A stretch of 64,000 nt of DNA from the NCBI GenBank assembly GCA_000002445.1, contig CP000069.1, positions 224,001 through 288,000 on the forward strand, in the 5' to 3' direction. Both the position numbers and the translations under genes were made by a program. The stretch comes from Trypanosoma brucei (lineage: Eukaryota). Every line of letters starts with the position of its first letter. Position 1 is the stretch's first letter. A model generated the notes under the pieces. It saw nothing but the letters and a program-made list of their open reading frames with translations. It had not been told where the DNA came from and did no database searches. Below, in pieces: positions 1-15,094 of this stretch.

Positions 1-236
1 CCCCTGCATCAAGTAGGACATACTGAATCCGCGAAGGCTCTCCGGCTTTCGTGAGGTGTTTCTAGCAACTATCACCTTTGTTTCTTCAACTTCTTGATTT
101 ATTGTCTTTTACTCATCTATTATCTCCCTTTTCTTTAGGTCCTGCATGTCAAAAAGTATACTGTCATATTGGGCGGGAAATCATATCATAACTGTGGTAT
201 GGTTTTGAGGGTTGCAGTCTTTTACCGTGCTGGTTA
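1..236. repeat. 236-bp direct repeat, copy A (5' extent cut by window edge); near-identical copy at 8637..8872
   Basis: Read directly: 1..236 and 8637..8872 are identical except 3 substitutions (pos ~136 t/c, ~151 c/t, ~152 a/t). Similarity ends abruptly after ccgtgctggt in both copies. Confidence 0.85.
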
Positions 237-1449
237 GCTCCACGGCCTCCACCGAAAAGGGGAGAGCCCGAACGCTGGTTTCCCCATTTCCCCGTCTTTT
301 CGATCAAGAACCCCTTGCTTTTAGTAGGTATTAGATCGGTAACTGGGAGATTGTAGCGGGTGTTCGTGTGTGGGGAGCGTTGCGCACTCGCACGGTTTTA
401 AAATGGTTGTTATGTCAAAGCTGTTATTTCCCTTTTGTTCACTATGCCATTTGTTAACCATCTTCCAGTTGTTTGTTATACTCCTATCGATGGATTGTCA
501 CTCCTTCAAATATGGTGCTGTAGTTTGAATACTCTCTTGGTGTGCCGCAAAGTGTGGGATACATAACGTGCCACAAGCTAGCGCTTCCAAGGGGGTTTAA
601 ACTCGGGAACTGTGAGTGTGAGTCTCGAACCAATGCGATGGTTCTGGTCTGCGCTGAAGGACATTTTATAGGGCCCCCGGATCCTCCCTGTGCCCAACTC
701 GGTGATGCTGAGGTCGATGAATTCCTTCGTTCGCTACGAAACAAAGCATTGGGTTTGGTGGCATTTAGTGCGGTGCCTTCGATGGTGTTGTGCTTTCCTC
801 TCCTGGAATGTGCTGGCTCGGGTTAAGATTTTAGCGGGTGCGGGGGAATGCGGCCCAACTTTTTTGCGCGAAATCTCTTGCATTGACTTGCCGCGTAACC
901 CATGGTGGTTTCGTCAGCCTGGTAGGAGCTGAGACAGCAGCATAATGGGTGGATTCTCGTATCCATTCGTGTGGGCATGCTCCCCACTTGCATGGGTTCC
1001 ATTTTTGAAACATTGGTGCACTGGGGGTGTGTTCCGTAGGAAGGGCCGCGCGGTTGGGGCTTTAAAAGCACGACTGTAACATCTATATAGTGAAGTGGCG
1101 GGTGTACGAGTTGGGAGTGCAACATTTGAGTGCGGTGTTTGTCCTGCATGCCCCCGACTGCTGGTTTTCAGACTTCTTCGATGCCCGGTGTTTCGTAGCA
1201 AAACATACCGCTGCCGGCCTAAATGCCGCTGATTCACCACAAAGTGCTTTTCAGTGCCCCCAAACTGGATTGCCAAACTTCTGACAAGTGTATTGTTCCG
1301 AGTATGGTGAGCGGACCCCTTCTCTATTATCAATTCTCAAAAACTCTTCGGGAGTCAGGGCCCACGGAACCGAGGGGGCGGATGAGGGAGAGGGGGAAAC
1401 AACAATTCCGCACCGCGAACAGGCACCGCTCCCCTGGACCTCTTCCTCA

Positions 1450-1740
1450 GATGTGAGGTGCAGTCAGCCTTTGTTGTCATTGGGGTTAAGCGGAAAGGTG
1501 TGTGTCAGTAGGTTGTGAGGTGAAAGCGTTTTCAGATGCATAGTGAGCTTAATGTCCTTTTCACAGTATATCGTGTCTGATAGGTATCTCTTATTAGTAT
1601 AGTCGAATACTAGTCAATAGTGCATTTTGTGCAAAATGTCCATTTTGTGGCAGTGATGGGGTTGCTTTATGCTATTCCGTGTCTCTGGGTGGGCGTGCAT
1701 TGAAAATAGGGGTTATCGGGTGAGTACTGAGTTTAACATG
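1450..1740 (+). promoter_or_regulatory. Procyclin (GPEET/EP3/PAG3 unit) promoter region, RNA polymerase I type in T. brucei; boundaries approximate
   Basis: Lies immediately upstream of the first procyclin gene's polypyrimidine tract and AG acceptor (approx 1771..1805). Procyclin promoters are known to occupy ~250 bp upstream of a start site ~100 nt 5' of the splice acceptor. Position is inferred; no promoter motif was verified. Confidence 0.45.
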
Positions 1741-1780
1741 TTCTCGTGATCGCTGCACGCGCCTTCGAGTTTTTTTTCCT

Positions 1781-1922
1781 TTTCCCCATTTTTTTCAACT
1801 TGAAGACTTCAATTACACCAAAAAGTAAAATTCACAATGGCACCTCGTTCCCTTTATCTGCTCGCTATTCTTCTGTTCAGCGCGAACGTCTTCGCTGGCG
1901 TGGGATTTGCCGCAGCCGCTGA
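1781..1922 (+). repeat. Duplicated 5' flank, copy 1: polypyrimidine tract, AG trans-splice acceptor, 5'UTR and first ~28 codons (signal peptide); copy 2 at 3059..3200
   Basis: 56 nt before the ATG (tttccccatttttttcaacttgaagacttcaattacaccaaaaagtaaaattcaca) are identical upstream of both procyclin genes. Coding identity continues through [26 protein letters not shown]. Confidence 0.85.
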
Positions 1923-2181
1923 TGAGTCGGCTAGCAACGTTATCGTGAAGGGAGGCAAAGGAAAGGAGAGGGAGGACGGCCCTGAGGAGCCGGAAGAAAC
2001 CGGACCAGAAGAGACCGGACCAGAAGAAACCGGACCAGAAGAGACGGGGCCGGAGGAGACGGGGCCGGAAGAGACGGGACCAGAGGAAACTGAACCTGAA
2101 CCTGAACCTGGTGCTGCAACGCTGAAATCTGTTGCACTTCCGATTGCAGTCGCGGCTGCTGCTCTCGTTGCCGCATTCTAA
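1837..2181 (+). CDS. GPEET: GPEET procyclin (major early procyclic surface glycoprotein), 114 aa
   Basis: ATG verified at 1837. N-terminal signal peptide, KGGKGK motif, 6x GPEET pentapeptide repeats plus EPEPEP, and C-terminal hydrophobic GPI-attachment signal ([23 protein letters not shown]). This architecture is unique to T. brucei-group GPEET procyclin. Confidence 0.95.
1978..2109 (+). repeat. Acidic repeat array GPEEPEET-(GPEET)x6-EPEPEP encoded by 15-nt units with synonymous wobble variation
   Basis: Tandem variants of gagac(c/g)gg(a/g)cc(a/g)ga(a/g) are visible at 2002..2091. Confidence 0.9.
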
Positions 2182-2384
2182 GCGGATGCAAGCGTGTGAA
2201 GCGCCTCGGAGGAACGAAACCCCTTTGAAAAGGTGGCTTTCGTTTATATATTCTCCATCTGGTGCATCGTGTTTATTTCGTATTATTCCCTGTCAAAAGC
2301 TGCGGATATTCATTTAATATTCTTTTCGTTATATTTTTTTAGTTCTATCCTTTATTTTATCCGTTTTAATCGTCTTCTGAGACC

Positions 2385-2406
2385 CACAGCCCTGTAGATT
2401 TCTGTG
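2385..2406 (+). promoter_or_regulatory. 3'UTR stem-loop (stem CACAG/CUGUG, loop CCCUGUAGAUUU); probably the conserved procyclin 16-mer translational element
   Basis: Inverted repeat read in the sequence. The same loop sits in a compensatory stem in the EP3 3'UTR (3708..3733). Identification as the 16-mer is from memory of the literature, not verified. Confidence 0.6.
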
Positions 2407-2602
2407 ATGTTTCGGTTGCGTATTCCATAATTTTAAGCGTTTCACTTCTATTTTTTTTCATTCCTTTGAATTTGGATCTTAAAATTATTATTGGTGCCTT
2501 GTGTTATTGTGCGTGCTGCGTGTGAATTTGGTGCTCTGCCTTTTAATTTGTTGGATGAGCTATTTCATTAATTTTTTTGCCTTCTCTTCTTTTGGGTTCG
2601 AA

Positions 2603-2647
2603 TAATAGTTCCTTCTAAACCTTCAGGCCAGAAATGGGAAACAAGTG
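2603..2647 (+). promoter_or_regulatory. Conserved ~45-nt intergenic block (aatagttccttctaaaccttcaggccagaaatgggaaacaagtg), copy 1; copy 2 at 3936..3980
   Basis: ~88% identical block found ~420 nt downstream of the stop codons of both GPEET and EP3, although the surrounding downstream sequence is otherwise diverged. Confidence 0.5.
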
Positions 2648-3058
2648 TTAGACCGGCCAACTTGGGCGAAGGGGTCTGCATGTTGCTTTATTTCATTGGT
2701 GGTTTTATGTGCAGTGTTTCCCTGCTTCAGATGGGCCCCGCAGCTGAAGTTGTTTCGCTGCCCTGCCCCCCACTGCTGCGTTGCTGCTGGAGAAACGATG
2801 TTGGAGGTTGACGGGTGTGTGCTTTTGAAGACTTTGTATGAATATGGAAGGAAGCTCGCAGCGGTTACTACAGGCAGTTAAGGGCTGAGTGCTGTGCCTT
2901 TTCTATTGCCTCTCCCCCTCTTGAGCTATTCTTGTCGGGAGAGTGATTTATATATCCGAGTTTCGGTTAATTGTCCCTTAGGGATGAAAGGCACCTCAGA
3001 GATGAGAGGGCAATGCAACGCTGGTTATCCCAGTTGATGTGCGCATTCATATATACCA

Positions 3059-3200
3059 TTTCCCCATTTTTTTCAACTTGAAGACTTCAATTACACCAAA
3101 AAGTAAAATTCACAATGGCACCTCGTTCCCTTTATCTGCTCGCTGTTCTTCTGTTCAGCGCGAACCTCTTCGCTGGCGTGGGATTTGCCGCAGCCGCTGA
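3059..3200 (+). repeat. Duplicated 5' flank, copy 2 (polypyrimidine tract, splice acceptor, 5'UTR, signal-peptide codons)
   Basis: See 1781..1922. Confidence 0.85.
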
Positions 3201-3504
3201 AGGACCAGAAGACAAGGGTCTTACTAAGGGAGGCAAAGGCAAAGGCGGGAAGGGAACCAAGGTCAGCGACGACGATACCAATGGCACTGACCCTGAACCC
3301 GAACCTGAACCTGAACCTGAACCTGAACCCGAGCCAGAGCCAGAACCTGAACCGGAACCCGAACCCGAACCTGAACCTGAACCTGAACCCGAACCTGAAC
3401 CCGAGCCAGAGCCAGAACCAGAACCTGAACCTGGTGCTGCAACGCTGAAGTCTGTTGCACTTCCGTTTGCAATCGCGGCCGTTGGTCTCGTTGCCGCATT
3501 CTAA
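3115..3504 (+). CDS. EP3: EP procyclin (EP3-type, with N-glycosylation sequon NGT before the EP repeat), 129 aa
   Basis: ATG verified at 3115. Signal peptide almost identical to [15 protein letters not shown] motif, DDDTNGTD, ~23 EP dipeptide repeats, and C-terminal GPI signal. A tandem GPEET-EP arrangement is characteristic of the chromosome-6 procyclin locus. Confidence 0.93.
3292..3432 (+). repeat. EP dipeptide repeat array (6-nt gaacc(t/c/g/a) units, ~23 copies)
   Basis: Direct reading of cctgaa/cccgaa/ccagag units. Confidence 0.9.
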
Positions 3505-3707
3505 GCTCATGTAAAGAGAAATCTTTTTGGAGGGTCAAAACTTTTTAACAAGGGTGACCCCAACTGTTTATTTAACCCTTCCTTTGGCGCGATGCGCTCG
3601 CTTCATGGCGTTCCTTTGTGACAGGACACTGACACGCATAATATTTTTTTCAACCCATTTTTTTGAGTTCTATTTTTTGTTTTATGTCTTGGAACCGTCG
3701 GCGGTAG

Positions 3708-3733
3708 CACGCAGCCCTGTAGACTTCTGCGTG
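3708..3733 (+). promoter_or_regulatory. 3'UTR stem-loop (stem CACGCAG/CUGCGUG, loop CCCUGUAGACUU), counterpart of 2385..2406
   Basis: The stem is 7 bp here versus 5 bp in GPEET. Base changes (A/U to G/C) are compensatory while the loop sequence is conserved, which is direct evidence for a selected RNA structure. Confidence 0.6.
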
Positions 3734-3935
3734 TGCCTGTCAATGTGTTCCTTGGCTCTTTTCAAACGGCTTCTTTTATCTTACCGTTCATATGGTTTTG
3801 TCAAAAATTCATTCACTGCATTTGTGGTCCTCTCCTATGTCTCGTTCCTGCAATGGTTGACAGCAACCTCTTCCATTTGTGACTGAACTTTTTTTTTTTC
3901 AAACTTTTTGCCTTGTCCTTTTTTCGTACTGGGAA

Positions 3936-3980
3936 AATAGTTCCTTCTAAAACCTCAGGCTAGAAATGGGAGACAAATGG
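3936..3980 (+). promoter_or_regulatory. Conserved ~45-nt intergenic block, copy 2
   Basis: See 2603..2647. Confidence 0.5.
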
Positions 3981-5295
3981 ACTTTTGTTGACTCAAGCGA
4001 TTTGTCCCTCGATATTTCCGCCATCGCAGCTTCCGTTTGACACCGTGGAGTTGCAACATGGGAAGCAGCGGTTGAAGGAAGCACATTCCTGGTGATGATT
4101 CCTTCCTCGCCTACGGTGGTGCATCATCATGTTTGTTAATATGTCGGGGAAACTTTAAAGCACCTTGAGGGAGTTCACCGTAACTGTTCAAAATTGAGGC
4201 CTGAGTGGTGTTTTGCCTTTTGACTTGCCTTTATTTAACTGTTCTCGTCAGGGGAGCGATTCAGTTGAGTGAGCTGCTGCCACTTTATCTGTTGGGGAGG
4301 AGAGGCTGTGGAGAGGGTAAGCGCGTTGTTTCCATGAACTTTACGTATTTACTGCACTGCCCTCTGTTTTGGTCCACTTTGTGAAATACTCTGGGACAAT
4401 CAATGGAGAGTGTGAGATTTTTTGAAATACTTCTGGAGCATTCACCGGCTCGTCGGTCGTCATATGTTCTCGCAGTGTTTTCTCTCCCATATTCTTCGGG
4501 GCGGTATTGCAGTGAAAGTGCCATGCGGGACGCGTGTCAGAGCAGTGTTTGATGTTCCGGAAGTCTTCGGAGTTAGAGGGCAAATGCTCCTCTTCTCCTT
4601 TCGTGCGGCTTGATTCTCATACCGAGGCTTCCACTAAGCAGGCTGCAACTCTTCTGCTGACTTTTTGGTTTATTCTTTTCCCATATTTCAGTGTTGGAGT
4701 GTTTCTCTTGCCGCCCTTGGGAATCGGGCACAGTCATATGAAGGCGCTTGCTTCGGCAGCCAAAGGTGGTTCCGTTTGGTATTTCTTGTGGAGACATTTG
4801 TCTTCCTTTCCTTTTCGGCCACCTCTTTTCCCATGGAGAAAGGCCTCTGGTACTGTCCTGCCCGATGATCTTTGCCCCGTTCGTTCCATCATGAATAATA
4901 GTTACAAAAGTGTGTGTCGGTACGGCGGTGGATATTTCCCCAATCGCTTTGGTTGCTTTTACTATTTTGCGGGGCGGTTTAAAGTTGGTAACTCAGTGCA
5001 CTTCCAAAAAAATTGCGACTCGTACATTTGGTTTTATATGGAGGGTGGAAGAGCCGAAAACGTGTATGTGCTTGCTTGGATGAGTCGGAAAATAAATTCT
5101 AGTTTCCGTGTATTTTCCGTTCATTACGTCATATATGGCTTGGCCTTTAGATTTGTGTAAGGTATGTTTCTTTTCGAAGTTGGTATGCTGGCGGACGTGT
5201 TTGTTTAATGTAAATCAGCCAAGGTGTAAGAGTAGCTGTAATGATAAGTTTCTGCTTCTCCCTTTTTTACTGATGAATGTAGAAACAAAATCACA

Positions 5296-6660
5296 ATGAT
5301 GCACGAATTAGTGTTTATCATTGGGTTGTTTGTGGCTGTTTTATCTGTTTCTTCTCAGAGCGATTTGTCGAGACACAATTGGAGCATAATATCTAGAAAC
5401 CGGAGTGTGTTTACAAAACTCGTTAGTGAGCTCAACAACCACCACAGCATTGGTGAATTCGAGGCACTTTGCAAGATTTACAGAATCACACAAGCGGAGA
5501 CACCGAAGTCTTCCTTTAAGAATCGTGAGAAGGAAGCTGAGATTCTGAAGAAGTTGGAGGAGATGGTCAGTGAAACTGAGGCTGTGGGTGGTGATAAAGG
5601 TTCAAGTAAGTTGGGTAAAAGAACGACGGCATATCAGGAGATAAAGATACTTCTTGAGAAGGCGAAAAAGCTGAAGGAAGAAATAGAAGTAAATAGGACA
5701 AGATCGCTAAATGCAAGTCGTTCTGCTGAGGAAAATATGTTGAGAGCTGTGTATGGCGACGCTGTGGATGTGGCGAGAAATGAAAATAAAACTCTGGAGG
5801 AAGCCATGAGAGGAAACAAATCACTACTGTTCAACAGTGTTGATCATGCAAATATGAGTTGTGGTTCTTACGGAGACAAACTGGTTGGAAAGACACTGAT
5901 CAATGACTTTTTCTGCCTATGTGTGGGAGAGGCTATAGATGTACAAATAAGAAGCAATATGTTTTCGGGACTCGAGTTAAGCTCGAATTACCACCCTGTG
6001 TATAATGGGTTTAACTGTCCCTGCAAGGATGAAATAAGGAGACCCCAAAATGGAAGTTGGACTATGATGGCTGATTATTGCCCAAGCAACTATAATACTT
6101 GCGACCCTAGAAAGGTAAAATACAACCATACTGAGGCATGGGATGTGATTAGTAAAGCTTGCGTGTACAAAAATGTTGCATCGAATGTGAAAACTCTGAA
6201 GAGTGCACTAGCTCAGTTTGATGCGTTGGTGAATTTAGAGCAGGATAATTATCAAATGAAGGGTATTCTTGGGTACGCGGATATTTCAGAAAACACAAAT
6301 CGCACATGCAACGGTCATACTGCTGGATTCACGTGTGTCAGTTACAATTACACACTTGAAAATGGTGGAATTCCATGGTACAACCGCCTCACTAACGCCA
6401 CCAAGGAACTACAAGAAATGGCGAAGTATGCCAAAGAGGCTGACAGTCATCTTCATGAATTGGAAGAGTACCAACATGAGGCAGAGGAAATATATCTTGA
6501 AGTGAAACTTGGTGGTGATGCAGAGCTATGGAAGAGTAGCCGAGGTAAGGGTTACAGTGGAGGTGATGATACTGATGTAAATAATGATGGGCTCAACTAT
6601 ATAAATATTACAACTGACTTTCTTATATTATTGTTTTCATCTTTTATTTGTATATCTTAG
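5296..6660 (+). CDS. PAG3: Procyclin-associated gene 3 (PAG3): secreted/GPI-anchored glycoprotein, 454 aa
   Basis: ATG verified at 5296. N-terminal signal peptide (MMHELVFIIGLFVAVLSVSSQ), at least 13 N-x-S/T sequons, a Cys-rich central region, and a C-terminal hydrophobic tail (TTDFLILLFSSFICIS) typical of a GPI signal. Its position as third gene of the GPEET/EP3 unit matches PAG3; my recollection is that PAG3 was described as ESAG2-related. Confidence 0.8.
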   Translation: MMHELVFIIGLFVAVLSVSSQSDLSRHNWSIISRNRSVFTKLVSELNNHHSIGEFEALCKIYRITQAETPKSSFKNREKEAEILKKLEEMVSETEAVGGDKGSSKLGKRTTAYQEIKILLEKAKKLKEEIEVNRTRSLNASRSAEENMLRAVYGDAVDVARNENKTLEEAMRGNKSLLFNSVDHANMSCGSYGDKLVGKTLINDFFCLCVGEAIDVQIRSNMFSGLELSSNYHPVYNGFNCPCKDEIRRPQNGSWTMMADYCPSNYNTCDPRKVKYNHTEAWDVISKACVYKNVASNVKTLKSALAQFDALVNLEQDNYQMKGILGYADISENTNRTCNGHTAGFTCVSYNYTLENGGIPWYNRLTNATKELQEMAKYAKEADSHLHELEEYQHEAEEIYLEVKLGGDAELWKSSRGKGYSGGDDTDVNNDGLNYINITTDFLILLFSSFICIS

Positions 6661-7234
6661 TTTGTGATTAATTTGGTAATTGCTTTGTGTGGTGTCGCTT
6701 TTTTTTTTTCTTTGTGGAGGGGAGGAGGAGGGATGTTGTATTTGTGTGCAGTTGTTTTCAAATTAATTATAAATTTGGTAACAAAAATTTCTGCAAATGT
6801 TGCTTTTGACTGTGTTTGAGCGTGGCTGTTGGGACGTTGACGGGGAATCGCCACGGCAGGGTCATTTCCCGAGAGGGTGCCGATACGTTGTGTTACTTTT
6901 TCATTTTCACATCGCGCAAGGATATGGGTATGCTACTATTAACAAATCATTTAGCTCCTATCTAGTACGCTCCGCTGCGGCAGAAAAATAAGGGGCCACG
7001 AGCCAAATTCTATGTGTCTACGAGCACTGTCAGCCTTCCAAGGACTCTCGGATCTCTATCGCAGCGAGTTTAGGTTAAAAGTGGGGTGAAGAACTCCTCC
7101 TTCTGCTTGTTCCGACCGAACATAGAGGCGTGACGGCAGCTCCTTCGTTTCCATCCACGGAGGACACAACATTCGCTGAATTATCTCTTAATGGAGCGTT
7201 TTTTTGTTTTTAAGTGTAAAATAACTGTTTGGTG

Positions 7235-7261
7235 TATATATATATATATATATATATATAT
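7235..7261. repeat. (TA)13 microsatellite
   Basis: Direct reading. Confidence 0.95.
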
Positions 7262-8636
7262 TGACTGAAAGAAGGAGTCGAGAGCGTCTTTTCCGAGTGC
7301 ACTTTTCTCCGGCGGATCTCCCACTAACCTGTGCCGTAGGGCTATGGCTCCCAAAACACGTGTAAACACTACTGTATGATGTGGGTTATCGTGTTCATTG
7401 GCGTGGTAGTACTCTTTAATCCAGCGTATTCCATGTTTGATGTCATTGTGTATTTAGAAGCCCACTTTGGAGTAGATCCTTATCCCGGCCTCGGAGGGGA
7501 TACTGCACACAGTTGCAACGCGTTGACGATGGAGCTCTGGGGCGCTGTTGGTTAGGTTTTCAAGTTTTGGAGTGACCCAATCTGTGTATTTTCTAGAGCT
7601 GAACCGTTAAGCTGCTGAGGGATGCATATTTATGCGGTCACTGTTAACTTCAAATGAGTTGTTCATCTGCTGAAGCCGTTTCCCCGGACGGTGGCTCTTT
7701 ATCTCCCTATGTGTTATCCTGGCTTCACTTTGTAAGGCCACTGCCTTCACTAGGTTTGTTTTCCTGGTGTCTGACCCTTTTCTGTGGAGGTATCCCGCCT
7801 TTCAATTTGCTTGCGATGTTGCATTCCCTGAACTGTGGCGGATTTGATTCTGTAGCCTTTTCCGTTGGGAGAGCCAAGCTCTCAGTCATTCTCCAACCCT
7901 GTGTTTCACCACTTGTTTTTACTTTGTTTTTATACCTTCGTTTGATTCTGTAATTTTCGTTGCGCGTTTAGTCTGCGCCTACTCCGCTCTCACTGTTTAT
8001 CTTCAGTTACTTGCTCACAGAAAGTCTGAGCAGATTCGTGGCAGCTTGTTCCCACTTTACGCATTTATCGACGGGCAAATTCTCGTTACCCTGCGAAGGT
8101 GCTCTGGGACTTGGTAAGTAATCAGCTTCTTTTGCTGGCACAACATTTCGGTTTGTTTCAGTAGCTTGGTGACGAGACGTTTTATCACCATCTGGGTTTT
8201 ACTGTTTCTCGCCTGTGTCTACGTGGCCGTTGTTTTGTGGCTTAACCGTCCCTCTGGACTGAATGTTTGAAGCTATATTCATGAAGAACTGCGCGAGTTC
8301 CACGTATTGGTTCCTTCCTTTTCTGTTCCACTGCGCTCATCAACCCCATTCCTTCTCATCCTTGGTGTCCTCGAGTTTTTGGAGGAAGTGCCTGATCGTC
8401 TCTCGGTATTCTGTTCTTCCGTTGTTGCGAACCTCCCTTCACTTCCCTTCCCGACTGTGCACTATTTTTTGTTTTTGCACCACGTAAGTCTGGCTTGTCT
8501 GAGGAGTTTCAAATATTACCCTGAACGCCGCCTGCTTTCCGTTGTTATGTTCCACCTCTTTGTGCCTCCATCCGTAGTTGTTCCTGGGGCGATGACAATT
8601 CCAGGATCGTGCTACCGTGTGTGCGTTAGATTACCG

Positions 8637-8872
8637 CCCCCTGCATCAAGTAGGACATACTGAATCCGCGAAGGCTCTCCGGCTTTCGTGAGGTGTTTCT
8701 AGCAACTATCACCTTTGTTTCTTCAACTTCTTGATTTATTGTCTTTTACTCATCTATTATCTCCCTTTTCTTCAGGTCCTGCATGTTAAAAAGTATACTG
8801 TCATATTGGGCGGGAAATCATATCATAACTGTGGTATGGTTTTGAGGGTTGCAGTCTTTTACCGTGCTGGTG
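8637..8872. repeat. 236-bp direct repeat, copy B
   Basis: See copy A at 1..236. Confidence 0.85.
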
Positions 8873-9376
8873 GCGGCTTTGCCGTCAGAATTCTTGCCGC
8901 ATACTTTGAGGTTGTATGTGCTATTCATGAATTTACGATATTCTTTTGCTATATCTTCTGAGCCAGCAGCGGCTTTGCCCGACGGAGCACAACAGCAGTC
9001 ATTTTCATTCAGCCTTTCCGCAACTGCCCTCCTCGCATATCATACTCACCGTCCACACAACATAACTTCCAATTTTATTGAAAAAGAAATTACACAACAG
9101 ATCTTGCTTGACATTTCCCCCCATATGCTGTGTCGTGTTTTACTTGGTCCTTAACCTCTGCCGCATCATTTTCTTTCTGCATCTATGTCTGACGTGCCTT
9201 TCTGCCATGCAAATGTTCAGTCATGCTCCGCGCTTACATTGCTCGTCGACCTTCGCCATGTCGCCATGTCAGCGTTGTATGCTCCTCGGTCTCCTATTTG
9301 AAACTTTGTGATATCCATCGCTGCCTCTTGTTTCGTCGGAAGTCAGGGATATATTTCACGTTCCTTCACCGCCTTG

Positions 9377-11225
9377 TCAGACCACGCAAGCACGTCCTGT
9401 ATGTTGCTCCTGAAGGTTGACCACGCCCTCTTTGGTAAGCCCCACCGTATTTCTCATTGCTTCGATGGTTATTTTGTAGTAATTTGTTCCCGTATCATCT
9501 CTCTGCCTCCCGTATGGGTCGTCACAAAATCCCTTCCGCATTTGGATGTTAGCGTGTTCGGCGGCGTATTCCTCTGACCTGACATTTTCCCCCGCTGTCT
9601 CCTCAATTTCCACACCTCTACGGTTGCACGCCCTTACATCCTTTGATCGTCTCCACTGAACTTCCCATAATTTTTTCCCCGCTTCTAGGATGTCTTCATG
9701 GCCTCCCGGCGTTTGGACTCAACGTATTGGCGAGGTTGCGGATGCTTACGACAAGTTTCATGGCAGTGGTGGAACCGAAAAACGCTACCTTTGCTGCTTG
9801 CCGTATTTTCGCGTTCCACGCCCCTGGTATCCTTGTCGTCCGCGGTCCTTTCCCCCGCGCCCTCGGCCGTTGTGGCCCCTTCTTTATTATATGGATGAAG
9901 TTTGGAGGTATGAGACTTTGGCGACACCGACGTTGGGTATGCTTTGGTAGGGCAAGGGCAAATTATGGTCTCTCTTCTTTGCTCCTCCGCCGTTTTAGCG
10001 TTCCTTTTTTCCACCCTCTCCACGGAAACTATTTTCATCGCTTTCTTCCGGTCTCGTGGCCCTGTCCTTGCACCCTTGACGGCGGGTTTCTACGCGTCGT
10101 TTTAGCTGGTGTTTCAGAAACTCAGTATTCGTGCGCAAGAGGCACCTTCGTGCATTTCCTTCTCCCAGTCTTATCCCTTCATCGCCATATTCACTGCTTC
10201 CCGCTGGAGTGTCGCATTTTCCACCACTTCCCAATGGCAGGGTCAAATCTTTCTTCCTATAGTGATAGAGGCAAATGTGTCACTTATACCAGTTTGTAAC
10301 TGGTTGTTCTTTGGTCCTTGTGAGCATTTCCTTGCACTCTCCCAGATTATTCCTAGGCTTCTTCGCCTCGTTTTGTTCATCGCTTCTGGTTTGAACCTCC
10401 CTCATGTCTGTTCGTATGTTTTTTAAAGTTTGTCACATTTCCGGGGAGTGCCCCGCTCACACAAAACACATTGATAGCATCCGTGGCGCACACGAGGGAT
10501 TTCACAGCATCTTTTAAAGCCTTCCCATGCGTCTGCCACTTCTGCCCACTCGTGTCCCTCAACTATGTCACTCATGGTTGATCCTTATCAGTGGACGATA
10601 AAGTTACATTCTGTGCCCATCACTGGATCGCGAACTCTCTCTGCCTTAGCCTCGGGGGCTATCAATAGCGTGCTTAATTCGTTGGCAAGCGCTTCGTTGT
10701 ATTGTTTCTCCTTTTCAACGCCTTCAATTTGGTATTTACACAATCGACATTTGCTGAAACACTTATCAGGGAGGGAGGCTGTTCCACAGGTCTCGCCAAG
10801 TTGTTCCGGGGGTGCGAATATGAAATTGTTAAAGGGCGAGATTTCTTTTATTCCGGCATGCGATCGCTTCTTTAGTAGAGACTCGATGTGACCGAGAAAG
10901 TTTCTCCTGCACGTGTTTGTCCCAATCCCAGCTTCGAGCGCAGCATATCCCTCGTTACGCTTCTGCTTTATGTCTCCCACCAAAACATCAATTTTACATA
11001 TTAGGTGTGTCATTCTGCAGTTGTTTCTTCCACTGCAATCTCATCTGTTATTGCACTGTCTTTCCAAACAACGTGGTGGAAGAAAATAAGCTGCATAGAA
11101 ATCACCTCATTCTTTTTACTGACCGTGAAAATCACCCTTCCATACGCGGCTCGGGATTCCATCATCCGCGCGACTCGGTCTTTCATTGTTTCCAGTAGCG
11201 TATTTAGCACCTTTTCAATTGGCAC
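9377..11225 (-). pseudogene. Probable decayed gene: six abutting minus-strand ORF fragments in shifting frames (11225-11010, 11013-10588, 10562-10377, 10246-9995, 10038-9685, 9613-9377); identity unknown
   Basis: The ORF track shows near-continuous minus-strand coverage over ~1.85 kb with frame changes at the fragment junctions. Composition is less biased than the flanking spacer. One fragment carries a CFSKCRLC (C-x3-C-x2-C) motif. There is no intact ORF. Confidence 0.3.
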
Positions 11226-14071
11226 CGGTTCTGCACGATGACTGCATCCTAATATTCAGATGTCCCTTTAATCCTGTACTTTTCCATGTTGCCGAAGATT
11301 ATCGTTTCTGCAGTGGACTAACTGCCTAAACTCACCAGTTCATTTGTTGAAACTTTTCAGTCCGTCTTATTGAATATCCCTATTCTTTGCGGCGCATGAG
11401 CCTTCCTCCATTCGTCTTTTGCCTTTGCTTTTATACCCACCCGCGTATGGCAAATTTGTGTGCACTCTGGAGCCAATGTCCAAGGAGCTTTAAGTATGGA
11501 GTACACCTTGATTTTTGGTGTCGGAGCACCATCCCTCCACTGAATTCAGCCATTCAGGTATTGGATGACTTCTAGGATATTGCCGGTTTATTATGTCTGA
11601 AAAGCATCCTCTTATAGCGTTTGACATGGGGCGGTATTCCGTCGCCCTCTTGTTTGCCACTTTTCAAACAAATATCACTCGAGCTTATTTGGGCACACCT
11701 TGTTTTTGCGTGCTACGAAATCTCGGAAATCGTATGCGTTGTTTGGGGCTGTGTGCTTTCCACCCTCTCCCCGCTTGAAGTGTTGACGGAGAATCACTTA
11801 AAAGGAATGCCGTAGTTCATCTTTGCATGGATAAGTCCAGAGTGGAAGGCTGCAAACGGTTCCGTCTGGGGAGCCCTGTTCGGCTAGCACTACGGCATTG
11901 AGCGTCCGTAATCTTGTCCTTCCTAATCTTGTCGTTTGTTAAGCGTGCTTCGACGTTTTTTTTTCTTTTTGACGGAGGGCAAACGATGATGTTTTCTCAA
12001 GATCGCACTTCAATGACAGCATACTCTTTAAGGGTGGCTTGGCTGCATCATCAACCGGACGAAAGATCATTCGAGGAAGCGTGCGGTGAAACGAACGCTC
12101 GTTGTTACGGGATGGTGACGCGAAATTTGGCGGATATGCCGCGTGTTGGAAGAGAGAACAAAAGGCGCAGAGATTTGTGAATTACTGTGCCTCACCGTTC
12201 AGCCTGTCAACAACAGATGGGGGCACGTTTTGGCAGCGTCCACAAAGCCCAGGCTGGAGGTTGTTGAACGCGAGAGCGGCACCCCCGCCGTCGAGGGGCT
12301 GAAGACAAGACGTTATGTGAGCATTTTATCTCGGACCAGTGAAAGCGTAGGTGTGCCACAGGATGGGGTCCACTTTGTTCTCCACCACCTCGTGCAGAGG
12401 AAATATGTTGAAGGTGCGGAGTCAAGCGATCAACATCGTGCCGTCGGTGCTGAAATAGTGAAAAAGGGAGAACAACATGCTGAAGGAGGCGCGGCACACA
12501 ACCGGATGATGGAGCTCAACGGCGGATTTGTTTGGGCGATATCACCGGCAAAGTGTGCCCCCGAGGACTACGCGTCTGTTTGGGGTTAGCTACTATAAAG
12601 GATCAACGCCGCCTCATGGGTGAATGGGGCGCTGCAGTGCACAGGGTACCCCCGCCGCGGCTGGGAGAAAAGTTCCGAATGCAAGCCTCTCCGCCCGGTG
12701 ACGAATACAGCTGAACACGACATGGGGCATGGGGCAAAGGTGAATATGGTTGAATACTTGATAGTGGGGGTTGCGCAGGCGAGGGCGTATAAAAATCAGG
12801 TGCGCAAAGAGGCTGGTCAAAACGCCTGGCACTTTCAGGAATCATGGAAAAAAAAGCATGAGGATCATGAACGGTGGAAGCGGACAATATGAGCACGGGA
12901 AAATGGGGCGAGGGGAGGGTTGACAACAGGGAACAATACCCTTGCTGCCCCACAAAACGTATTGCGGGACGGCGTCTCGCAGAAGGGGGAAATATCCATC
13001 CACTGCGCAACTGACTCGGCAAGTCGCTCAAACACTGTAAAACACTGCCCCAATCGAGGCGACCACGTCTCGGCAGGAGGATGACCACTATTCCATTTCT
13101 TCCACATCAAGAGGTTCCTCCACATGTTAGCCACGTCCACGTGTGTGTGCGTATTTGTAAACCCCAGAAGTCCAGTCCACATAATAGCGGGCCCGAGTTC
13201 ATGCCCAAACCCTCTCGGAAACTTACGTTGTACAGCATGCGCTAATGCCGGTATCCATGACGGGCCCCGCCGCAGCTGCCGTGTGGGATGCTAAAAGTGT
13301 AAGAGGCACTAAAAAGCGACCCATTCGTTTGTTGTTGTTTTTTTCTGTTTTCTTTTCAAATCTTTGTGTCGTGAAATTATACGCGTATCCGAAGAGGCTC
13401 CCAACATCCTTATCCCTTCCCCGAGGGCGTGCATCGCTCAGAAGCACTAAAGCAAGTACCACTTCTCCTACGGGCAGCACCTGGTCTGATTGTTGGAGAA
13501 AACCCACACCAACAGTTGTGGGGGTGGTTGTGTGTATTTGGCCGCGTTCGGATGCCCCGGAACATCTCTGCGTTAAGTTTCTTCACCGGAAAGCGGCCAC
13601 CAGATTCATAAAATGCTCCCACCCGAGCGGCCACAATATCGGGAAGAGAGGCATCACGCCGGTGTGATGCGTATTAGAAGAGGGAAGCTGCAACACTTTT
13701 GTGGCTTCAGATTAAAAAAAAAAAGCGGGGGAGAATGGCAGCACCTACTGGAAACCTGCGGTAGAGGGAGCAAAACAACAACAAGAGGGGAATATGGCGG
13801 CAGTGCGGGCAAAGGGATCCCGCGCACCGGCAGCCGTTTATTTCTCTCCTTTACTTTCAGATATTCAGTAGCAAAGTTGCAGCGAAAGTGAAAGTTCTAC
13901 GGGTACTCGTGGGCGCTGCGATACGCATTTCGTACAAAAAGAAGTTTTCTCCCCTCTAGCATCTTCATCGCTATCCTGGGGTTAAACTAAAACGCATCTG
14001 TTGGAATAAAATTAGATTGAAAAAAACACACGCATAAATGTTCACGACTCTTAGGTTTAACGATGTGCAAC

Positions 14072-15094
14072 CTACGCCGTGTTGGGTGCAAGAGGAATGC
14101 CAGCAGAACCGCCATCCTCGATGCCGCATTCGCTACTTCCGCGGCGGATGAGAAAGTAACCGTCCATTCCCCACTCGGTGTTCCAGCTGTTGGCAATCTT
14201 CCAGTACGGCACTCCGTTTGATGTGCCCCACCCAACGAGCCTCACCGCATGTCCTCCGAGATATTGTCCTGAAACGTGGTGGTAGACGCCGCTGTTGTAG
14301 GCGATGAAGTCTTCGTAGACATCAAACGCCACCTCAAATGGACCGCGGAAGAACAACTCACGCATGTAGTCATCCTCTCCTTGAAGCGCATAGCTCGTCC
14401 AGGAACGGTAGTTGACAACGGGGATTGTCGGGTCATCGCACGTGTAATTGCACTTGGGCGTGTCAAAGTTGAACTGAGAACAGGGAGGGTACCCATTTTT
14501 GCTTTTGCTGTGGTGTGAGCAATGGGGAAATGGGTAGGGTTGGCAGTAGTCCGAAACGAGGCCTGTTGAGCTAAAGTACGCCCACGCCCTATCCGGATCG
14601 CCACCATTACAGCCATCGCCACAATCACTGCAGCACGCAAGCAAGTCACCTGCTGAGATATGGACGTCCTGCACACCCCCCATCGTACAAAATCGGTCGG
14701 ACATGGCTGAGGCCGCAGCGACTGCCCAGCAGGAGCCACAGGCGGACTGATCTGCAATTTGTGGGATGGTGGGGCAGTTGGGCCAAGCTTCAGCGGAATC
14801 GAAGCTGCTGGGAAGCGGGGCACGTGCCTCTTCCTCGGTGAATCGCCTCTTCGGAAGGATGCTGGCGTTATTATTCTTTTTAATAACACCGTTGAGCCGC
14901 TTCGCCTCGCGCAATGTTATGTTTTGCATGACGCCATCGTACTTCGCCTTCCAAATCCCGCGGTTGAGGCGGTTCACGCGGTCGACGAAAGCCTTGGAGA
15001 GGACGGGCGCGTCTTCAGCAACGAGGGCGGCGTTTACGGCGACTACAGCCGTCGAAGCGATACAAAATGTGATGCAGGCACGCATGAGATGCAT
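14072..15094 (-). CDS. CatB: Cathepsin B-like cysteine peptidase (papain family C1), 340 aa
   Basis: ATG verified at 15094. Signal peptide; active-site Cys motif CGSCWAVAAASAMSDRFC; occluding-loop region; His motif GGHAVRLVGWG; Asn motif YWKIANSWNTEWGMDGYF. Fits the Tb927.6.560 position. Confidence 0.93.
   Translation of the reverse strand: MHLMRACITFCIASTAVVAVNAALVAEDAPVLSKAFVDRVNRLNRGIWKAKYDGVMQNITLREAKRLNGVIKKNNNASILPKRRFTEEEARAPLPSSFDSAEAWPNCPTIPQIADQSACGSCWAVAAASAMSDRFCTMGGVQDVHISAGDLLACCSDCGDGCNGGDPDRAWAYFSSTGLVSDYCQPYPFPHCSHHSKSKNGYPPCSQFNFDTPKCNYTCDDPTIPVVNYRSWTSYALQGEDDYMRELFFRGPFEVAFDVYEDFIAYNSGVYHHVSGQYLGGHAVRLVGWGTSNGVPYWKIANSWNTEWGMDGYFLIRRGSSECGIEDGGSAGIPLAPNTA

Follow-up and report, generated by a model that had tools for sequence, protein, structure and literature searches.

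The closest described relative of the locus treated here is the procyclin locus of Trypanosoma brucei brucei TREU927, in which a triplication of EP3, PAG3 and GRESAG2 has already been published (Carnes et al. 2015, PMC4288722). The accessible text of that report gives the same genes as single-copy in AnTat1.1, and single copies were confirmed in EATRO1125 (Naguleswaran 2021, PMC8483307). At the far end of the locus, three synergistic RNA polymerase I (Pol I) terminator elements were described 2-3 kb downstream of GRESAG2.1 (Berberof et al. 1996, to the extent cited in PMC2731899), and a break in synteny has been reported at the procyclin locus (PMC2731899). For recombination in T. brucei, a minimal efficient length of ~31 bp is known, and recombination that is in part independent of RAD51 still takes place, at low frequency, with homologies of 25 bp (Barnes & McCulloch 2007, PMC1904282). 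Here, we analyzed a stretch of 64,000 nucleotides from TREU927 chromosome 6 (contig CP000069.1, forward strand positions 224,001 to 288,000; hereafter the window), whose genes were named by open reading frames (ORFs) and exact protein look-ups, and in which two copies of a direct repeat stand at either end of a procyclin cassette. With a probability of about 0.9, the window opens within a tandem array of procyclin cassettes, the 234-bp repeat is the truncated tail of an array unit, and the array came about through 30-bp repeats. The array itself is already known, and the 30-bp junction repeat is the only new detail.

According to a repeat finder and base-by-base comparison, positions 1-234 of the window (copy A) recur at 8638-8871 (copy B), both on the plus strand with an offset of 8637, forming a direct repeat of 234 bp. 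The copies differ at two positions (T at 136 against C at 8773, and C at 150 against T at 8787), share the right-hand end ccgtgctggt at 234 and 8871, and diverge completely past it, copy A running into TAGCTCC and copy B into GGCGGC. A first-pass annotation of the window had described a near-perfect direct repeat with this common end, which stands, but its extent (236 bp, 1-236 and 8637-8872, with 3 differences) needed correction; in a register where 1 corresponds to 8637, the copies would not align, giving 182 mismatches at offset 8636. No third copy of the 234-mer was found by blastn on either strand of the 64-kb window. The terminal 30-mer had 0 matches in 100 shuffles of the sequence, and chance was thus excluded for the repeat. 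No ORF of at least 70 amino acids (aa) is present within 1-234, and the repeat is without a demonstrated function of its own. Copy A begins at the first base of the window, so that its left end lies out of view. The earlier warning that the repeat might pass the window edge was therefore apt, and the statement that everything between and beyond the copies is unrelated applies inside the window and no wider. The spacing of the copies corresponds to one complete unit, the interval holding GPEET, EP3, PAG3 and GRESAG2.

Exact look-ups returned three PAG3 proteins of TREU927 from the same contig (XP_845169, XP_845172 and XP_845176), which differ mutually by 1-3 residues, XP_845169 and XP_845172 being 2-3 residues away from XP_845176. 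GRESAG2 is also present three times on that contig; XP_845170 and XP_845173 are identical, and each is 91% identical to XP_845177. GPEET2 was found once, and in the order of accessions the GRESAG2 entry XP_845173 directly precedes GPEET2 XP_845174. Taken together with the published triplication, these gene copy numbers and this accession order indicate that the window starts inside the array, and copy A is thus most likely the tail of the preceding unit. The array would consist of (EP3-PAG3-GRESAG2) twice and then GPEET-EP3-PAG3-GRESAG2, with the window opening inside it, ~2 kb downstream of the second GRESAG2. Copy A would be the 3′ tail of the preceding unit, and copy B the same tail of the last unit. 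In comparison with the triplication of Carnes et al., the strain, the locus and the gene content are the same, the genes of the window are those of the last unit (XP_845174-177), and the repeat is the unit end; the difference is that the accessible text of that paper holds no description of the junction or of an ancestral 30-bp repeat. Reading the repeat as the footprint of a duplication, as the first-pass annotation had done among other proposals, was essentially right, with a tandem array of the whole cassette as the product and the repeat as the visible tail of the previous unit.

The origin of the junction was approached through two comparison loci, L007 from T. b. gambiense DAL972 chromosome 6 (FN554969.1:27720-48328) and L008 from T. 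b. equiperdum IVM-t1 (CM010677.1:126076-146390). In DAL972 the order is HpHbR, GPEET, EP3, PAG3 and GRESAG2, followed by cysteine peptidase C on the opposite strand, with the cassette present once. The T. b. equiperdum IVM-t1 locus is likewise single-copy and built in the same way, and from window position 205 onward both loci align colinearly with the window at 96.5-96.8% identity. The 234-mer occurs once in each of these loci of ~20 kb, at the position of copy B downstream of GRESAG2. Upstream of the promoter, both genomes keep only the last 30 of the 234 bp, TTGAGGGTTGCAGTCTTTTACCGTGCTGGT, and the other 204 bp are absent. This upstream 30-mer, exact in both (L007 5689-5718, L008 8370-8399; 205-234 in the window), stands directly before TAGCTCC, which starts at window position 235, and is preceded in both single-copy genomes by GAGAGGTGTCC, which is unrelated DNA on the HpHbR gene side. 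The downstream 30-mer, at 8842-8871 in the window with exact copies at L007 14308-14337 and L008 16952-16981, is preceded in both single-copy genomes by GTGGTATGGTT and followed in each by GGCGGC. Since the exact 30-mer is found at both cassette ends with unrelated outer flanks, the TREU927 junction is placed inside the 30-mer. No extended or degenerate homology was found around the two 30-mers in DAL972. In TREU927, each 234-mer copy has a single substitution of its own against both outgroups, as a recent duplication would lead one to expect. The first-pass annotation had proposed a comparison with other subspecies, and copy number and structure do vary there, DAL972 and T. b. equiperdum having a single cassette and one 234-mer. 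A protein search for contigs of other strains covering the promoter-upstream site, in which ORF pieces from all six frames of window 1-1840 were joined to a length of 1443 aa, gave no matches.

From this comparison, positions 1-204, which the window edge truncates and which match 8638-8841 with 2 mismatches, would be the terminal 204 bp of the tandem unit before, and positions 205-234 would be both the array junction and the ancestral cassette flank. The last cassette starts at 235 with the promoter-upstream and procyclin promoter region (235-1836, plus strand), which is colinear with L007 from 5719 at ~99% identity; the position of the promoter within this region is taken from the literature. 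Its final 204 bp (8638-8841, copy B without the 30-mer) line up colinearly with the one copy present in DAL972, in T. b. equiperdum and in L001, a contig from Logan, and the downstream 30-mer closes the tandem unit.

The ancestral layout would have been flank A, 30-mer, cassette, 30-mer and flank B, one 30-mer lying, as judged from the single-copy genomes, ~1.6 kb ahead of GPEET and the other ~2.2 kb past GRESAG2. The extra TREU927 cassettes would have been joined head to tail through the 30-mer, which would make the 234-bp repeat the sum of 204 bp of the prior tail and the 30-mer itself. The mechanism we infer as most likely is that unequal exchange between the 30-bp repeats made the array, either as a rare event between the two direct repeats on sister chromatids or homologues, or as short-homology repair. 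Given the ~31 bp minimum and the low-frequency recombination of 25-bp homologies, a rare exchange over 30 bp is plausible. Once the array had formed, the units of 7-8.6 kb could themselves have served as recombination substrate. The arrangement resembles unequal exchange at short direct repeats as known from Barnes & McCulloch (2007, PMC1904282) in that the repeats flank the segment, the junction lies inside the repeat and the units stand head to tail. It differs in that the homology is only 30 bp and the event is reconstructed, and a microhomology- or replication-based route is possible. The earlier suggestion that the repeat is a substrate for unequal recombination is consistent with these data, but the original substrate would have been 30 bp and not 234 bp.

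Several points weigh against a tandem array formed in this way. At 30 bp, the homology is about as short as efficient homologous recombination allows. The homology running left beyond window position 1 is deduced from annotation order and literature, not from sequence. With a single procyclin gene in each, units 1 and 2 are not simple copies of 8637 bp, and a secondary recombination between GPEET and EP3 is assumed for this reason. In that second step, recombination between the two genes would have left one procyclin gene in units 1 and 2. GPEET and EP3 share three direct-repeat blocks, 1778-1922/3056-3200 (98%), 2092-2191/3415-3514 (90%) and 2570-2647/3902-3979 (74%), with a spacing of 1278-1332 bp. 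Recombination between these blocks could readily delete or exchange one procyclin gene, and may explain the one-gene units. Between the GRESAG2 of this unit and its two other TREU927 copies, moreover, protein identity is only 91%. This is no argument for an old duplication, because the gene is hypervariable between strains, its coding sequence being 86-88% identical to DAL972 against ~99% in the surrounding 5 kb. The differences of GRESAG2 (5296-6660) from the other TREU927 copies are clustered. The gene looks hypervariable or mosaic, possibly through conversion from other ESAG2-family genes.

Paired boundary or terminator elements had been a further proposal of the first-pass annotation, and a reading of the two copies as a Pol I boundary, insulator or terminator pair delimiting the procyclin unit could draw on the position of copy B, 1978-2211 bp (1.98-2.21 kb) past the GRESAG2 stop codon and thus at the GRESAG2-proximal border of the published terminator zone, and on the convergent strand switch in which the locus ends. 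That zone corresponds to ~8.66-9.66 kb in the window and lies mostly beyond copy B. Only 30 of the 234 bp are present upstream of the promoter in DAL972 and T. b. equiperdum, the other 204 bp being absent, so that no pair exists in the single-copy genomes. For the procyclin units of chromosome X, published work found no downstream relative of the chromosome VI terminator region (PMC2731899), and a search of 1-12000 with Rfam returned nothing. Terminator activity of copy B, if any, would belong to the unit tail and not to a bracket. A pair of boundary elements is thus very improbable. Judged by position in the sequence, copy B could overlap the first terminator element. Two reviews or papers that cite a Berberof paper give no terminator coordinates. 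The PARP A (GPEET/PAG3) terminator region (Berberof et al. 1996, as far as it is conveyed in PMC2731899) is similar in that copy B sits on the GRESAG2-side margin of the mapped zone, but no termination activity is known for the 234 bp, and the upstream copy would be due only to tandem duplication. The internal junctions of the TREU927 array, as far as can be deduced, are without most of the published terminator zone.

That a dispersed repeat or a fragment of a mobile element (RIME/ingi-like or other) came to flank the cassette by coincidence has nothing in its favor beyond the presence of two copies, and can hardly be believed. Two copies were found in 64 kb and one in each ~20-kb locus of DAL972 and T. 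b. equiperdum, in line with the first-pass remark that this is not a recognizable dispersed element. Terminal inverted repeats are missing, the printed sequence shows no poly-A tail when read by eye, and the lack of a long ORF and of Rfam matches also speaks against such an element. Contig L001 (3153 bp) corresponds to window 11290-8136 and runs unbroken through copy B, crossing the 234-mer without the break expected of a repeat with multiple contexts. Five other Logan contigs (L002-L006) from different sequencing runs all start at the window equivalent of 4460, ~90 nt before the PAG3 ORF. Since assemblies break at this repeat edge and yet L001 crosses copy B, the 234-mer has one context in that genome. 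The strain from which L001 comes has a split GRESAG2 including a 251-aa ORF (P0014), the length of the published GRESAG 2.1 entry Q03849. Position 4460 fits the published point where PAG3 leaves the ~640 bp of 5′ untranslated region common to PAG1 and PAG2. As a separate observation, L001 and L002, both from run ERR7929159, overlap by exactly 30 nt at 8136-8165, indicating an assembly-graph branch in that strain.

Because the locus is repetitive, the triplication, and copy A with it, might be suspected of being an artefact of the TREU927 assembly. The copies are distinguishable, however, by 1-3 residues in PAG3, by 91% identity in GRESAG2 and by two sites in the 234-mers. The junction at 234/235 is specific and is exactly explained by the 30-bp homology, and the accessible text of Carnes et al. 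(2015, PMC4288722) states that TREU927 reads mapped to all units with a relative coverage above that of T. evansi. An artefact is therefore highly unlikely, and we retain the tandem array of cassettes as the explanation of copy A.

Why a 30-bp pair flanks the cassette in the first place is a further question. The pair is too long for chance. That it is the footprint of the placement of the cassette at a synteny break, or a recombination site maintained to set copy number among strains, is a rather doubtful proposal. As a footprint, it is possible that it represents a long duplication of the target-site type, a templated insertion into an old rearrangement breakpoint, or the integration, via short homology, of a circular intermediate. 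Exact 30-mers abut the cassette at both ends in three genomes without extended homology, and, as with target-site duplications, an exact 30-bp direct repeat flanks an 8.6-kb cassette in the single-copy genomes at a locus with a reported synteny break. The differences are that 30 bp is long for a target-site duplication, and that neither terminal inverted repeats nor features of a transposase or retroelement are present; at the ends of the unit, inverted and direct terminal repeats scored no better than in shuffled sequence.

The genes of the last unit are all on the plus strand. GPEET2 procyclin (1837-2181) matches XP_845174, the GPEET2 procyclin precursor of TREU927, exactly. EP3 procyclin (3115-3504) has the EP dipeptide repeat and the N- and C-termini of procyclins, and matches GPEET procyclins and Pfam PF05887. 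An exact entry for the 129-aa translation of EP3 is absent from the protein collection, in which GPEET2, PAG3 and GRESAG2 are present, and the EP3 homology search returned only GPEET-type procyclins and not EP1 or EP2, probably owing to low-complexity filtering. The major ORF of PAG3 (4552-5160), copy 3 of 3 in TREU927, matches XP_845176 exactly, and GRESAG2 (5296-6660), also copy 3 of 3, is 100% identical to XP_845177 and carries Pfam PF13206. The ORF at 5296-6660 had been taken for PAG3 in the first-pass annotation, which consequently placed copy B ~2 kb downstream of PAG3 instead of 1978 bp downstream of GRESAG2. Its picture of a repeat bracketing the whole transcription unit was likewise inexact, as the unit also holds GRESAG2 and runs past copy B.

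The unique downstream flank (8872-11854, plus strand) is colinear with DAL972 and T. b. equiperdum, covers most of the published Pol I terminator zone and leads into the strand switch. Divergence between strains rises ~65-100 bp downstream of copy B (~8940-11000), in the published terminator zone; L001 has 5 differences from the window in 8136-8935 and then 10-18 per 200 bp, and the identity of DAL972 falls from 98.6-99.6% to 94-97% past ~8940. Further on, identity to DAL972 is down to 81% in 11500-11854, and 11854-12041 (~190 bp) has no counterpart in the DAL972 alignment; the convergent strand-switch region thus holds an indel or rearranged patch here. On the minus strand, cysteine peptidase C (14072-15094; papain family, Peptidase_C1) is the first gene that could be assigned to a family. 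Among the ORFs of 220 aa or more beyond 14 kb, two lie within or overlap longer minus-strand ORFs and the rest are all on the minus strand, and the plus-strand procyclin unit thus ends in a convergent strand switch. Two 734-aa ORFs (35-37 kb and 43-46 kb) were considered as paralogues and rejected as unrelated. The intergenic regions at 19-23 kb, 38-49 kb and 60-64 kb contain many poly-A/poly-T, (TA)n, (CA)n and (ATT)n tracts, which dominated the results of the repeat finder and appear to reflect the usual make-up of intergenic DNA in trypanosomes.

These results remove a false lead, as the apparent boundary pair is an effect of the window being cut in a known strain-specific tandem triplication. 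Mapping-based work on the TREU927 reference, such as Pol I chromatin immunoprecipitation, run-on or RNA sequencing, faces multi-mapping across the units. Together with internal junctions that would be without most of the terminator zone, this makes TREU927 a poor model for the Pol I boundary of chromosome 6. The junction within the 30-mer also offers a junction-specific polymerase chain reaction marker, and the 30-bp flanking repeat is a simple, testable explanation for the variation of procyclin cassette copy number between strains.

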